A DNA stretch of 64,000 bases from positions 1,321 to 65,320 of the forward strand of contig JAKQKX010000092.1 of the NCBI GenBank assembly GCA_029560465.1, written 5' to 3'. The notes under the pieces are model-generated. The model was given only the letters and a program-made list of their open reading frames with translations. It was not told where the DNA came from and searched no databases. Below, in pieces: positions 24,606 through 35,630 of this stretch (the first letter of the stretch is position 1; the number at the start of each line of letters is the position of its first letter). Source of the DNA: Candidatus Omnitrophota bacterium (GTDB lineage: Bacteria; Omnitrophota; Gorgyraeia; Zapsychrales; JANLHA01). Made by a program: the position numbers and the translations under genes.

Positions 24606-24710
24606 AAAATACCGGGAGCGCTTATATGCGCAGGTCTCTTATGCTGCTGGGGTACAGCTAAGAGACGTTAAGGGGAAAAAGGGGAAAGAGCCAAGGCGCT
24701 CCCGGTATTA
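24606..24710. repeat. About 105-bp imperfect palindrome (nested stem-loops) immediately upstream of the first IS200-like gene
   Basis: Outer arms AAAATACCGGGAGCGC (24606-24621) and GCGCTCCCGGTATT (24696-24709) are exact reverse complements. Inner arms GGTCTCTTA and TAAGAGACG nearly so. Followed by a T-rich tract. Confidence 0.5.
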
Positions 24711-24719
24711 ATTTTATTC

Positions 24720-25226
24720 TTGAAAGGACCTGTTATGCGAGACACTTCGGCATTCTTGGACGGCAGTGTATGTTTTTTGGTTAAGTTCAGCCCTTTAAGC
24801 AATCGAACTCTTTTTAAGAGGGATGATGATTATAAATATTATTTGTATTTGTTAAGGAAGTACAAGGCGCGGTATCAAATAAAACTTTTCGCCTTTTGTT
24901 TGACTCCCAAAAGGGCCTCCCTGATCGTCCAGCCATACGAAGAGGAAGGGCTTAATATTTTTCTTCATCACTTGAGTGAATCTTACATGAATTATTATAA
25001 TGAAAATTATGATGAATTTGAACCTTTGAAAGCGGGCCGGTATCGTAAGCTGACTTTAAATGATAACCAGACGTTAATCTCCTGTATCAAAGAAATGGAG
25101 TCCCTCCCCGTTAAGCAACTGCTGTCGGACTCCCCGGTGGAATACCCCTACAGCAGTTATTGCGCGCGTGTCGGCTCCCGCCAGAATGGGCTGCTCGACA
25201 GAGATGCGTATTTAAAAAGCAACTGA
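24720..25226 (+). CDS. IS200-like / REP-associated Y1 (HUH) transposase homolog, probably degenerate
   Basis: Shares block order with the intact copy at 34068 (...LFAFCLTPKRASLIV... and a C-terminal ...VEYPYSSY). The HxH motif (HVHMV in the intact copy) is replaced by ASLIV. Confidence 0.55.
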   Translation: MKGPVMRDTSAFLDGSVCFLVKFSPLSNRTLFKRDDDYKYYLYLLRKYKARYQIKLFAFCLTPKRASLIVQPYEEEGLNIFLHHLSESYMNYYNENYDEFEPLKAGRYRKLTLNDNQTLISCIKEMESLPVKQLLSDSPVEYPYSSYCARVGSRQNGLLDRDAYLKSN

Positions 25227-25377
25227 TCCAATCTCCCCTTCCCCCGATTGTTTCTTGTTCGTTGATTTTTATGCCTTGTCCCCTGATCAATAGATCCCCG
25301 ATGAAGGTTGCGAAGGATGCGGCTGTTAATACCCTTTTTAGAAAGAATTTTATCCGTTCATTTTAAAAGGAGGGAAT

Positions 25378-33964: not shown

Positions 33965-33989
33965 GAAAATCAAGGCAAAAAAAGAAGGG

Positions 33990-34690
33990 AACAAGGAAGT
34001 AGGTGCCAGGCACAAAATCGGGACAGGTAGATATATATGAGGCAGACGATGAAGGAGTTGATAAGAGGTGGGCAGGATTGCGCGAGCGGCATTGTTATAC
34101 GACGGATGTTTTGCTCATGTTTTTACACGAGCGATCGAAAGAAGAAAGATTTTTGAAAAGTCAGAAGATTTTCAATTTTTTAAGAATGAGGTTTTGGTAG
34201 TTAAAAAAGAGTATTCCTTCAAAGTTTTTCACTATTGTCTTATGCAAACGCATGTGCATATGGTCGTGGCGATTAAAGATGCCTCGCGATTTTCAGAAGG
34301 CATGAAGGTTCTAAAGAAATCCTATACTCATCAATATAATGTGACCCATAAGAGAGTTGGCCCCTTATGGCGTGACCGCTACAGGGCTAAGCTCATAGAA
34401 AACGAATCTTATTTGAAGACCTGCGGAAATTATGTAGAGTATAATCCAGTGGAAGCGGGGATTGTGGAGAGGGCCGTTGATTGGCCTTATAGTTCAAGTC
34501 GCCATTATCAAATGGGGGAGAGAGACTTGATTGTTGACCTTTATGATTATCATGAAGCAGAATCAATGCCGGTTTGGAGGAAGGATGAATTCGAAGAGAT
34601 GAAGGTGATAGGCTCCGATTGGTTTCAGTTTCAGATTCACAGGAAACTCACGGGGTAGGTGTCCCCCAAAAGTGCCTGGCACCTTTGGCT
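33990..34690 (+). mobile_element. IS200/IS605-family-like element: Y1 transposase gene flanked by near-palindromic hairpin motifs
   Basis: GTAGGTGCCAGGCAC (about 33993-34007) upstream and GTGCCTGGCAC (about 34672-34682) downstream of the tnpA-like ORF. Both are near-perfect palindromes, as expected for IS200 left-end and right-end hairpins. Confidence 0.55.
34068..34658 (+). CDS. IS200-like / REP-associated tyrosine (Y1, HUH) transposase
   Basis: HUH motif (HVHMVV). Catalytic-Tyr region (WRDRYRAKLI...YLK...YVEYNPVEAGIV...WPYSS) typical of the Y1_Tnp family. GTG start with GAAGGAG RBS 10 nt upstream. Confidence 0.8.
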   Translation: MGRIARAALLYDGCFAHVFTRAIERRKIFEKSEDFQFFKNEVLVVKKEYSFKVFHYCLMQTHVHMVVAIKDASRFSEGMKVLKKSYTHQYNVTHKRVGPLWRDRYRAKLIENESYLKTCGNYVEYNPVEAGIVERAVDWPYSSSRHYQMGERDLIVDLYDYHEAESMPVWRKDEFEEMKVIGSDWFQFQIHRKLTG

Positions 34691-35500
34691 CTCTTCGGGC
34701 GGAGCCAAAGACGTATTTGTTCATTGATAGGTATTCAAAGATCGATGTTATATTATCGCCCCATGTTAAGAAGCGATGATCAACTTCGGCGACGTATACG
34801 GGAATTGGCGCAGAAGCATCGCCGCAGAGGATGCCCGCATTTGCACCGAATCCTGCGCCGTGAAAAGCTTGTGATCAACCATAAGCGCACCGAGCGTATC
34901 TATCGGGAAGAAAACTTGTCCATTCGGCACAGAAAACGCAAGAAAGCGGCTTCCCAGTTGCGCGTTCAAATCCCGGATGCGACGCGCCCCAATCAACAAT
35001 GGGCAATGGATTTTATGTCAGACGCGTTATTTAATGGCCGTAAAATTCGGTTGTTCACCTTAATCGATGAGTACACCCGTGAATGTCTGGCCATTGAGGT
35101 AGATACCTCGATAAATGGTGTCCGGGTGACCGGCATCTTAAGCCGGGTGGCTTTAATGCGTGGCCTTCCGGAAATCATCAAGGTTGATAACGGCCCAGAG
35201 TTTATTGGCAAAGCCTTGGACGCCTGGGCGTATCAGCGGCAAATTCATCTTCAGTTTTCCAGGCCCGGCAAGCCAGTTGACAACAGGTTCATTGAAAGCT
35301 TCAACGGTCGTTTTCGGGAAGAATGCCTTAATGACAACTGGTTTATGAGCTTGCAGGGTGCACGAGACATCGTCGAAACATGGCGGCTGGATTACAACAC
35401 AGCCAGACCGCATGGCTCATTAAACGATCTGACACCCGAAGAATTCGTTAACAAAGAACAGCAAAAACTCCAACTCAATCTGGTACAGTCAACGGGGTAA
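34619..35500 (+). CDS. IS3-family transposase OrfB (integrase-core/DDE domain) without an upstream OrfA, so a likely defective IS remnant
   Basis: rve-type integrase core (QQWAMDFMSD...LIDEYTRECL...KVDNGPEF...RPGKPVDNRFIESFNGRFREECLN...YNTARPHGSLNDLTPEEF). The N-terminal portion resembles the end of an orfA. No intact HTH orfA is found upstream. Confidence 0.75.
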   Translation: MVSVSDSQETHGVGVPQKCLAPLALFGRSQRRICSLIGIQRSMLYYRPMLRSDDQLRRRIRELAQKHRRRGCPHLHRILRREKLVINHKRTERIYREENLSIRHRKRKKAASQLRVQIPDATRPNQQWAMDFMSDALFNGRKIRLFTLIDEYTRECLAIEVDTSINGVRVTGILSRVALMRGLPEIIKVDNGPEFIGKALDAWAYQRQIHLQFSRPGKPVDNRFIESFNGRFREECLNDNWFMSLQGARDIVETWRLDYNTARPHGSLNDLTPEEFVNKEQQKLQLNLVQSTG

Positions 35501-35630
35501 GGTCCACAATACTTAATTATGAAGGAGTTGATAAAACTGTAGTAGGTGCCACTTCCCCTATTTTATCTGTTCCCCCTTAACGCGTTTTACCCCTGAAACT
35601 CACATTAATCTTTAAGACGAAGGAGGGGGT

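Follow-up and report, generated by a model that had tools for sequence, protein, structure and literature searches.

Does a transposase-like gene on either side of a toxin gene mean that the toxin is mobile? The question is raised by a 64,000-nt stretch of DNA (the window) from a Candidatus Omnitrophota bacterium (assembly GCA_029560465.1, contig JAKQKX010000092.1, positions 1,321-65,320 of the forward strand). Omnitrophota is a phylum of largely uncultured, PVC-group bacteria that are possibly predatory or host-dependent. In the window, an RHS toxin gene of 8.2 kb and the small open reading frame (ORF) behind it lie between two genes of the Y1/HUH superfamily, both on the plus strand. A first-pass annotation described the pair as IS200-like, the upstream gene degenerate and the downstream gene intact, and proposed that the toxin and its immunity gene sit in a recombination hot spot and may be mobilized or exchanged by these elements. 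The features that it listed are all present, with coordinates correct to within about 2 nt. Our comparisons point to another explanation for the two genes: this is probably a resident, vertically inherited RHS locus with a REPtron-type RAYT (a tyrosine transposase associated with repetitive extragenic palindromes, or REPs) at the boundary of its toxin cassette and an exapted, dead RAYT at its 5' end. The locus would then be a chromosomal TcB/TcC-like RHS polymorphic-toxin locus with two resident, domesticated RAYT-branch Y1/HUH proteins. RAYTs, present in roughly one in four bacterial species, are viewed as domesticated, with function unknown (PMC5581495, PMC6006769).

The comparison loci (labelled L016, L021 and so on) include 39 from a RAYT alignment scanned against species-representative genomes, nearly all of them Candidatus Omnitrophota; locus order was mapped across loci by tblastn. 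The species itself is present in anaerobic-digester and activated-sludge samples (JGI 3300010355, 3300009782 and 3300045917). A metagenome scan with a narrow alignment of the dead RAYT returned mostly generic RAYT relatives, and only L063, L064 and L073 were informative. The genes flanking the locus are referred to as up558, up88, LTD (lamin-tail-domain), RR and SerS.

The two RAYT-branch genes

The downstream gene, ORF4 (34068-34658, plus strand), encodes a 196-aa intact RAYT/TnpA_REP protein. It passes the RAYT model NF047646 (REP_Tyr_transpos; 86.6 bits, cutoff 80) and fails the IS200 model NF033573 (transpos_IS200; 23.9 bits, cutoff 55), so the IS200-like label does not suit it. Searching both proteins against PF01797, as the first-pass annotation had proposed, placed only one of them in that family: ORF4 matches (E = 4.7e-13), and the upstream protein, ORF1, has no match to PF01797 or any other Pfam family at E <= 0.01. 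ORF4 carries the motifs HVH and YVEYNPV. Its only sequence match in the PDB is E. coli TnpA_REP (4ER8, E = 8e-10), with the HVH motif and Tyr122 aligned to the HMH and Y115 region, and H62, H64 and Y122 are invariant or nearly so in 29 homologues.

ORF4 is flanked by an inverted pair of elements, each consisting of a hairpin and a GGGACAGG box. This layout resembles that of the REPtron, the name given by Quentin et al. to a RAYT with inverted flanking REPs (PMC6006769). The left arm, REP(+) (33999-34030, plus strand), comprises a GTAG foot, the hairpin GTGCC-A-GGCAC, the spacer AAAATC and the box GGGACAGGTAG. The right arm, REP(-) (34656-34683, minus strand), holds an inverted box and hairpin (TAG-GTGTCCCCC-AAAA-GTGCCTGGCACC) and overlaps the RAYT stop codon. 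GTAG plus GTGCCAGGCAC occupies 33999-34013, and the inverted copy GTGCCTGGCAC lies at 34672-34682. The hairpin-flanked, HUH-containing gene that the first-pass annotation placed at 34068 was thus recovered as described, with its HVH motif and inverted hairpins at 33999 and 34672.

The same flanks recur widely, with inverted hairpin-and-box elements at ORF4 and about 30 homologous loci (hairpin variants GGTGCCAGGCACC, GGTGACAGTCACC, GGTGCCAGGTACC and GGGGACAGTCCCC). In many Omnitrophota loci, REP(+) lies 35-60 nt upstream of the ORF4-type RAYT gene and its hairpin covaries, and REP(-) abuts the RAYT stop codon in relatives too. ORF4 homologues with 68-71% identity in L019/L024 (a Candidatus Omnitrophota metagenome-assembled genome, MAG) and L021 (groundwater) share the left element AGGTGCCAGGCAC-N6-GGGACAGGTA and, at the stop codon, the right element CTGTCCC-N5-GTGCCTGGCACC. 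Paired substitutions across loci (GGTGCC/GGCACC, GGTGAC/GTCACC, GGTGCC/GGTACC and GGGGAC/GTCCCC) preserve the hairpin, and where it is imperfect, as in L036 and L031, the right copy is the exact reverse complement of the left one. Taken together, motifs, models and flanks indicate that ORF4 is a catalytically intact RAYT in a REP(+)-RAYT-REP(-) unit.

REP copies are locally more numerous in some relatives: L042, L043 and L048 each hold 3-7 within about 11 kb. At L024:9745-9975 (= L019:5745-5975), a tandem array of seven full or partial REP(+) copies, resembling a bacterial interspersed mosaic element, separates the immunity ORF from the start of the RAYT. L025 carries two ORF4-type RAYT copies about 1.7 kb apart (2-853 and 1958-2578) with the same right-hand REP, one of which has H-L-Y in place of HUH.

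Likeness to the E. coli TnpA_REP/REPtron (4ER8; PMC6006769; PMC5581495) extends from the RAYT model and the register of HUH and Tyr to the short inverted palindromes around ORF4, the GTAG foot of the left one, the apparently single copy of ORF4 and the fold of ORF1, which is closest to this protein. A 5' GT[AG]G foot at the base of the REP hairpin is a described RAYT/REP feature (PMC6006769). The unit in the window differs from the E. coli system in that its REPs have, at 4-8 nt from the hairpin, an additional conserved GGGACAGG box, and a foot that is unconserved in relatives: GTAG in the left REP of the window and AAAG in the inverted right one, and AAAG, GGAG, GAAG or ACAG in relatives, with only AG constant. 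Further differences are that REPs are not dispersed in the 64 kb window, that the unit sits inside a toxin-cassette array, and that a second RAYT paralogue, catalytically dead and under selection, stands at the other end of the operon. Elements of the IS200/IS605 type (IS608, ISDra2) share the Y1/HUH fold with these proteins, and their transposases likewise recognize DNA hairpins, but the flanks of ORF4 are inverted repeats rather than distinct subterminal left- and right-end hairpins, and neither tnpB nor multiple copies accompany the gene.

The upstream gene, ORF1 (24735-25226, plus strand), encodes a 163-aa RAYT-like protein. We prefer a start at ATG 24735, which has a GAAAGGA ribosome-binding site, over the TTG at 24720 chosen in the first-pass annotation. 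Its family assignment rests on an NCBIfam match to the RAYT model NF047646 that is weak and below cutoff (E = 1e-3; 18.8 bits, cutoff 80), on BLASTP similarity to ORF4 (26% identity, E = 7e-16), on phmmer relatives and on its predicted fold; the IS200/IS605 TnpA model NF033573 gave no match. The AlphaFold model of ORF1 (pLDDT 89) best matches 4ER8 TnpA_REP (TM 0.70, rmsd 2.6 Å), followed by the IS200, IS608 and ISDra2 transposases at TM of about 0.5. In its motif columns (TPKRASLIV and IKEMESLPV), HUH has become R-A-S and the catalytic Tyr has become Glu, and because it has neither HUH nor Tyr the protein should be unable to cleave DNA.

This loss does not make ORF1 a decaying relic, since dN/dS of 0.05-0.15 against three orthologues (72-83% aa identity, with synonymous sites near saturation at pS 0.45-0.76) indicates strong purifying selection. 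The gene had initially been taken for a degenerate copy, a description at odds with both this selection and the distance between the paralogues. Among 1.8 billion representative proteins, a full HMMER scan detected 3,813 ORF1 relatives; in most of the nearest ones (156-200 aa, 30-41% identity) the HUH and Tyr motifs are degenerate. In look-ups in public assemblies, the exact ORF1 and ORF4 proteins were each found at this locus only. ORF1 thus appears to be an old paralogue from another RAYT subtype that lost HUH and Tyr and was retained by purifying selection, and its most likely role is that of a non-cleaving binder of hairpin or single-stranded nucleic acid, or of a regulator. Motif-less RAYT members were left out by Quentin et al. 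as presumed non-functional (PMC6006769). The case of ORF1 argues that some of them may be functional.

The occupant of the ORF1 position varies among relatives. In L044, it is an intact RAYT (HVH, YIEQNPV) between two direct REPIN-like palindromes of about 90 nt, and L036 has the RHS gene and the RAYT with the upstream Y1 gene absent. L026 reads REP(+) - dead Y1 - REP(+) - RAYT - REP(-), with no RHS gene between the two. The L044 palindromes (L044:1676-1780 and L044:2278-2382) are direct hairpin copies with z = -7 to -8 and compensatory differences between them, and a SpoVG-like ORF is inserted directly upstream.

The toxin gene, its exchangeable tip and the RAYT unit

The RHS gene (25378-33570, plus strand) encodes a secreted TcB/TcC-like polymorphic toxin of 2730 aa, with SpvB, FG-GAP, TcdB_toxin_midN, RHS_repeat (PF05593, E = 3e-38) and fn3 domains in Pfam and the Rhs core domain TIGR03696 (E = 4e-25). 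A PxxxxDPxG-type core-end motif, RYTYCNNNPVNLVDPSG, lies at 32653-32703, and the variable C-terminal tip spans about 32827-33570. Directly behind it, the 126-aa ORF at 33584-33964 (plus strand), with an N-terminal signal or lipoprotein-like peptide, is a putative cognate immunity gene, a role assigned from its position after the tip only. A small ORF directly follows the tip in all loci, and its homology tracks that of the tip; for instance, the second and third tips of L021 and the tip of L044 are mutually related, as are the immunity ORFs that accompany them. Neither the tip nor the immunity ORF of the window has a homologue in any comparison locus or a match in Pfam, and the tips, immunity ORFs and post-RAYT ORFs of relatives likewise gave nothing in Pfam. 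No TcA-like partner was identified among the scanned neighbours, and no search was directed at one.

Gene order around the toxin is conserved. The arrangement up558-up88-[Y1]-RHS-immunity-REP-RAYT-…-LTD-RR-SerS is syntenic across Candidatus Omnitrophota, and the run from up558-up88 to LTD-RR-SerS was found in L016, L021, L030, L036, L041, L044, L045 and L063 (SerS identity 64-70% in those other than L016). The LTD gene (35631-36296, plus strand; PF00932, E = 3e-18), whose product has a PEP-CTERM-like C-terminus, forms the conserved right flank of the variable region, with orthologues downstream of RHS/RAYT in L016, L021, L030, L041 and L045.

L016, a related species, bears on the question of mobility. 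It has the same upstream genes, an ORF1 that is 72% identical, an RHS gene of 2869 aa and a 128-aa ORF, after which LTD follows directly; the downstream RAYT and the IS3 element described below are absent. The RHS protein of the window is 66% identical to that of L016 over residues 28-2483 (2,456 residues). The conserved body thus extends to about residue 2483, where the homology stops, and beyond it the tip and small ORF are unrelated, a difference that has the form of a classical C-terminal displacement of tip and immunity gene. Since the RHS body is orthologous and keeps the same flanking genes, the 8 kb body appears to have remained in place over deep divergence, and a composite transposon does not fit. 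Turnover would be confined to the tip, its immunity gene and what lies downstream of them. The proposed recombination hot spot is upheld by these unrelated tips and by the absence of RAYT and IS3 from L016, as well as by the truncated IS3, a RAYT relic and low G+C in the window. Mobilization of the toxin/immunity pair by both Y1-like genes is contradicted by the fixed position of the RHS body and by an ORF1 that would be unable to cleave.

Base composition follows the same boundaries. G+C in the window is 30% in the immunity gene and 0.42 in the RAYT, compared with 0.50 in the RHS body and flanks and 48% in the whole window, and the tip is also below the flanks. In most loci, G+C is lower in immunity genes and RAYTs than in RHS bodies and flanks; immunity genes have 0.28-0.35 and RHS bodies 0.42-0.50 in the window, L021, L024, L030 and L045.

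An ORF4-type RAYT stands directly behind the RHS tip and immunity gene in at least nine species-level genomes. Its start lies 1.3-1.9 kb past the RHS core-end motif in the window, L021, L024, L030 and L045. L036 and L044 also carry it behind the tip and immunity ORFs, and L055 and L061 have only a truncated RAYT behind REP(+). REP(+) lies 12-300 nt after the immunity stop codon in each RHS-linked case, and the RAYT is therefore the next gene after the tip/immunity pair. L028:2842-5302, directly downstream of an RHS tip, is one of several clusters of two or three Y1/RAYT genes of different subtypes (DNHAHWLL, TNHIHLLV, DNHYHMIL), with others at L036:9995-12434, L041:9965-11232 and L058:7251-10831.

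L021 contains three stacked cassettes, each ending in REP(+). The first consists of the main tip followed by a solo REP (GGTGACAGTCACC), the second of an orphan tip followed by an intact RAYT (GGTGCCAGGCACC), and the third of another orphan tip with a REP (GGTGACACTCACC) behind it and then a 46-aa RAYT stump, which belongs to a different subclade. The third tip, its immunity gene and the stump have colinear homologues in L044. RAYT similarity is also out of step with that of the flanking genes: between the window and L021, RAYT identity is 68% and LTD identity 48%, and for L041 and L045 against the window, LTD identity is 47% and RAYT identity 42-43%. These patterns suggest that RAYT units and tip/immunity cassettes are acquired, stacked and eroded jointly.

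In the window, the space behind ORF4 holds the remains of two further elements. A 5'-truncated IS3-family element occupies 34688-35506 (plus strand). Its ORF (34619-35500; orfB 34763-35500) covers positions 102-368 of the 369-position NF033516 model, which agrees with the earlier description of an orfB without orfA, and its right inverted repeat, GGGGTAAGGTCCA, lies at 35494-35506. The 1.44 kb contig L094 encodes a 92% identical OrfB together with orfA and a left inverted repeat, TGGACCTTACCCC, whose reverse complement is the right inverted repeat of the window; the right end of the window element is thus intact. Compared with L094, the full IS3 layout of left inverted repeat, orfA, frameshift, orfB and right inverted repeat is reduced in the window by the loss of the left repeat and orfA. 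Homology to L094 starts on the left at 34688 (GCTCTCTTCGGG), or perhaps at GGCAC in the REP(-) hairpin, and with the right repeat intact it follows that a deletion removed about 380 nt, comprising the left repeat and orfA, and stopped in the REP hairpin. The breakpoint is at or within the REP(-) hairpin, with GGCAC as microhomology.

The other remnant (35519-35551, plus strand) can be read as the relic of an older RAYT unit. It consists of a 16-nt copy of the ribosome-binding region of the RAYT followed by GTAGGTGCCA. The exact 16-mer, ATGAAGGAGTTGATAA, occurs at 34049 and 35519 (two or more matches were seen in 1 of 100 window shuffles), and GTAGGTGCCA, at 33999 and 35542, corresponds to one half of a REP hairpin, the break falling at the loop. 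The recurrence of both had been noted in the first-pass annotation as a partial second copy of the left end at 35521-35552, about 2 nt away. Because the IS3 right end is placed at 35506 by L094, the relic is flanking DNA outside the IS3 element. An alternative in which 35519-35551 is itself the IS3 right end, with TGGCACC…GGTGCCA terminal repeats, was rejected on the same evidence, the right inverted repeat being GGGGTAAGGTCCA. By eye, L016 may carry a similar relic upstream of its LTD gene.

Competing explanations

The account that we favour, and consider probable, combines an RHS body inherited in place with variation at its downstream edge: replacement of tip and immunity gene, insertion of IS3 and a later deletion ending in a REP hairpin, and a relic of a second RAYT. 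The REP(+)-RAYT-REP(-) unit directly behind the tip/immunity cassette would mark the far edge of the segment that turns over. We infer that the intact RAYT may nick and rejoin single-stranded DNA at its own REP hairpins, which would leave the cassette boundary prone to breakage and rearrangement without moving the 8 kb RHS gene. RAYT/REP units set within arrays of polymorphic-toxin cassettes would be a new arrangement and not a composite transposon, and a functional link between the units and the cassettes is plausible.

Several observations weigh against this account. L016 and probably L063 retain the RHS gene without a downstream RAYT, so the RAYT seems dispensable for maintaining the toxin. 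Roughly 24 RAYT loci have 3 kb or more of sequence upstream; an RHS gene is present there in 9 and absent in about 15. Most of the RHS-linked cases share one syntenic locus, so that they represent few independent events. The association between RAYT and RHS was measured on loci fetched with the RAYT as query, a biased sample, and all comparison sequences are metagenome contigs or MAGs, in which RHS genes and REPs are prone to assembly breaks. Finally, genome-wide dispersal defines REPs, and those of the 64 kb window amount to the flanking pair and one 10-nt half-copy.

The composite-unit model of the first-pass annotation, in which two IS200-like insertion sequences bracket the RHS/immunity pair and mobilize or exchange it, seems very improbable. 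Both genes do belong to the Y1 superfamily in the same orientation, the region holds further signs of mobile elements, and L026, where the dead Y1 gene and the RAYT are adjacent with a REP alone between them, resembles an empty site. Yet the upstream protein would be unable to cleave DNA, the two genes are too different (26% identity, unrelated flanking structures) to be copies of one element, the downstream protein fits the RAYT and not the IS200 model, neither tnpB nor IS200/IS605-type subterminal ends are present, each gene is single in the public assemblies of the species, and the RHS body is orthologous within the same flanking genes over deep divergence. It had been suggested that relatives carrying the RHS gene without flanking transposase-like genes would speak against the model; what we found is that L016 is without the downstream elements and L036 without the upstream Y1 gene, and none of the loci examined is without both. 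It is also rather improbable that the adjacency is a coincidence, with the intergenic space behind the tip serving as a permissive dumping ground for RAYT units, IS3 and orphan tips in an ancestral locus that rarely rearranges. Such a coincidence would agree with the accumulation of an IS3 remnant and several Y1 subtypes at the same place, with the LTD/SerS synteny shared by most RHS-linked cases, with the many ORF4-clade RAYTs that have no RHS gene nearby, and with the finding that RAYTs are mostly vertically inherited single-copy genes (PMC5581495). It is hard to reconcile with a RAYT that keeps its position after the immunity gene although tip and immunity gene have been replaced many times, with REPs of different types ending all three L021 cassettes, with the truncated RAYTs that recur behind tips in L055 and L061, and with RAYT relationships that depart from those of the flanking genes.

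A closer coupling between RAYT and toxin is possible, if unlikely. Here the RAYT would nick the REP that ends each cassette and so drive the capture, exchange or stacking of [core-end - tip - immunity - REP - RAYT] units, or the module itself would be Y1-mobilized and land at RHS core ends, with the dead paralogue modulating the process or operon expression. In L021, where all cassettes end in REP(+), the different hairpin variants and RAYT subclades suggest separate acquisitions, and the third, orphan tip starts about 70 nt after REP(-). The colinearity of tip, immunity gene and RAYT between this cassette and L044, the core end-RAYT spacing that stays constant at 1.3-1.9 kb despite unrelated tips, the discordance between RAYTs and flanking genes, and the deletion and relic junctions of the window, which fall inside REP hairpins, are all consistent with coupling, as are a RAYT of another subtype after the RHS tip of L073 and three Y1 genes after that of L028. 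On the other hand, the core-end stubs before the L021 orphan tips differ in length (about 80 nt versus more than 200 nt), which homologous crossover would explain better than insertion at a specific site; the REP pair around the RAYT does not enclose the tip and immunity gene; and L016 has swapped its tip without keeping a RAYT. The second orphan of L030 has no detectable REP or RAYT, the RAYT-based choice of loci biases the sample, and our literature search found no paper linking RAYT with Rhs. Taken to its full extent, the idea would be that RHS tips move between Omnitrophota loci in modules that each comprise a core-end stub, the tip, its immunity gene, a REP and a RAYT, the Y1 enzyme and hairpins being the machinery for capture, stacking or swapping, or a homing device, at the conserved RHS core end, under the control of the dead paralogue and an undescribed structured RNA at the 5' end of the operon. 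We regard this as unlikely; if true, it would give RAYTs their first assigned biological role, polymorphic-toxin diversification.

H-rpt/ISAs1 elements occur in E. coli Rhs loci. Work by Jackson and colleagues (BMC Genomics, 2009) reportedly describes Rhs C-terminal displacement, orphan tip/immunity arrays and adjacent transposase genes in Enterobacteria. The Omnitrophota loci are alike in having a conserved body up to the PxxxxDPxG-type motif followed by an unrelated tip and small ORF in relatives, orphan tips with short core-end stubs (L021 and L030) and transposase-related genes directly downstream. They differ in that a RAYT with its own REP pair, fixed in position after the immunity gene in many species, takes the place of ISAs1/H-rpt, and in that the toxin is a secreted SpvB/TcdB-RHS fusion in a PVC-group phylum.

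Under the resident-locus account, the locus gives RAYTs a concrete and recurrent genomic partner, the exchangeable RHS tip/immunity cassette, and makes three matters testable: the part of RAYT and REPs in cassette turnover, the job of the dead RAYT, and the nature of the structured element described below. For annotation, "IS200-like transposase" labels beside toxin genes can mask resident RAYT systems, and bracketing by genes so labelled does not imply toxin mobility.

The structured element and neighbouring features

A long nested palindrome precedes ORF1, as the first-pass annotation had noted, at 24601-24716 (plus strand). It has 21-nt outer arms and an inner hairpin (24634-24667), and its outer stem, P1 (24611-24621 paired with 24696-24706), encloses a second stem, P2, and the hairpin P3, whose loop is CUGGGGUA; a purine-rich tract, AAGGGGAAAAAGGGGAAAGAG, and then a U-rich tail follow. 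The predicted RNA fold has a free energy of -47 kcal/mol (z = -4.5 against shuffles), and about 93% of the element is conserved in relatives with saturated synonymous sites. RNAalifold on four orthologues (window, L016, L018 and L063) predicted 30 pairs, three of which are preserved by double changes, and at four positions G-C or A-U has changed to G-U, which pairs only on the plus strand. Diverged versions behind the same upstream gene in L026, L036 and L064 have a GC-rich closing stem followed by a U-rich tract. In these versions, the GGGGUA loop is constant, the 4-bp stem covaries (GCUG/CAGC, GUCG/CGAC, AUCG/CGGU and GUCG/CGGC) and the purine tract begins GAGGGGAA….

Because L036 has no Y1 gene behind the element, and L064 has a GIY-YIG gene between the element and the ORF1-like gene, the element appears to be tied to the 3' side of the upstream gene and not to ORF1. 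Our best reading is that it is a terminator-like structured RNA domain, either a terminator or a 3' end, set between the ORF1-RHS operon and the gene before it; it could be a protein-binding site as well. In Rfam, the element has no match at the gathering threshold (search of the entire window) or at E <= 10 (search of 24500-24800).

That the palindrome might instead be a dispersed REP or REPIN was rejected: the GGGGUA-loop hairpin is confined to this locus in 966 kb of comparison sequence, and its substitutions favour a plus-strand RNA. REPINs are REP doublets that form hairpins (Bertels and Rainey). The window palindrome is similarly stem-within-stem, and the L044 RAYT at the ORF1 position lies between hairpins of this kind, but the palindrome is single, undispersed and always placed after the same upstream gene, with its GGGGUA loop, purine tract and plus-strand RNA pattern. 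Homology between it and the REPIN-like repeats of L044 was also considered and rejected; the MAFFT alignment was unconvincing, and the likeness is one of architecture alone.

A C-rich tract, CTCCCCTTCCCCC, lies directly after the ORF1 stop codon (25227-25260) and complements part of the upstream purine tract (GGGGAAAAAGGGGA). Pyrimidine-rich tracts likewise follow ORF1 in L016, L018 and L063, and long-range pairing that brackets ORF1 is possible. The small GIY-YIG-type ORF of L064 (L064:720-1110) is itself bracketed by GTCATCCTGA…-type hairpins, and the equivalent place in L036 (1200-1560) is occupied by tandem repeats (TAGTGTCATCGCG…).

PADLOC defence models applied to ORF1, ORF4, the immunity ORF, the tip and the upstream genes returned nothing meaningful. 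Elsewhere in the window, three large ORFs have no Pfam family at E <= 1e-3 (57740-63388, 1882 aa; 38965-41205, 746 aa; 44822-47281, 819 aa), and a tRNA gene at 41377-41462 is the sole Rfam match at the gathering threshold. The LTD protein ends in a PEP-CTERM-like sorting signal, VPEPLSILGLGWGLGFAAAF, which implies an exosortase system in this organism.

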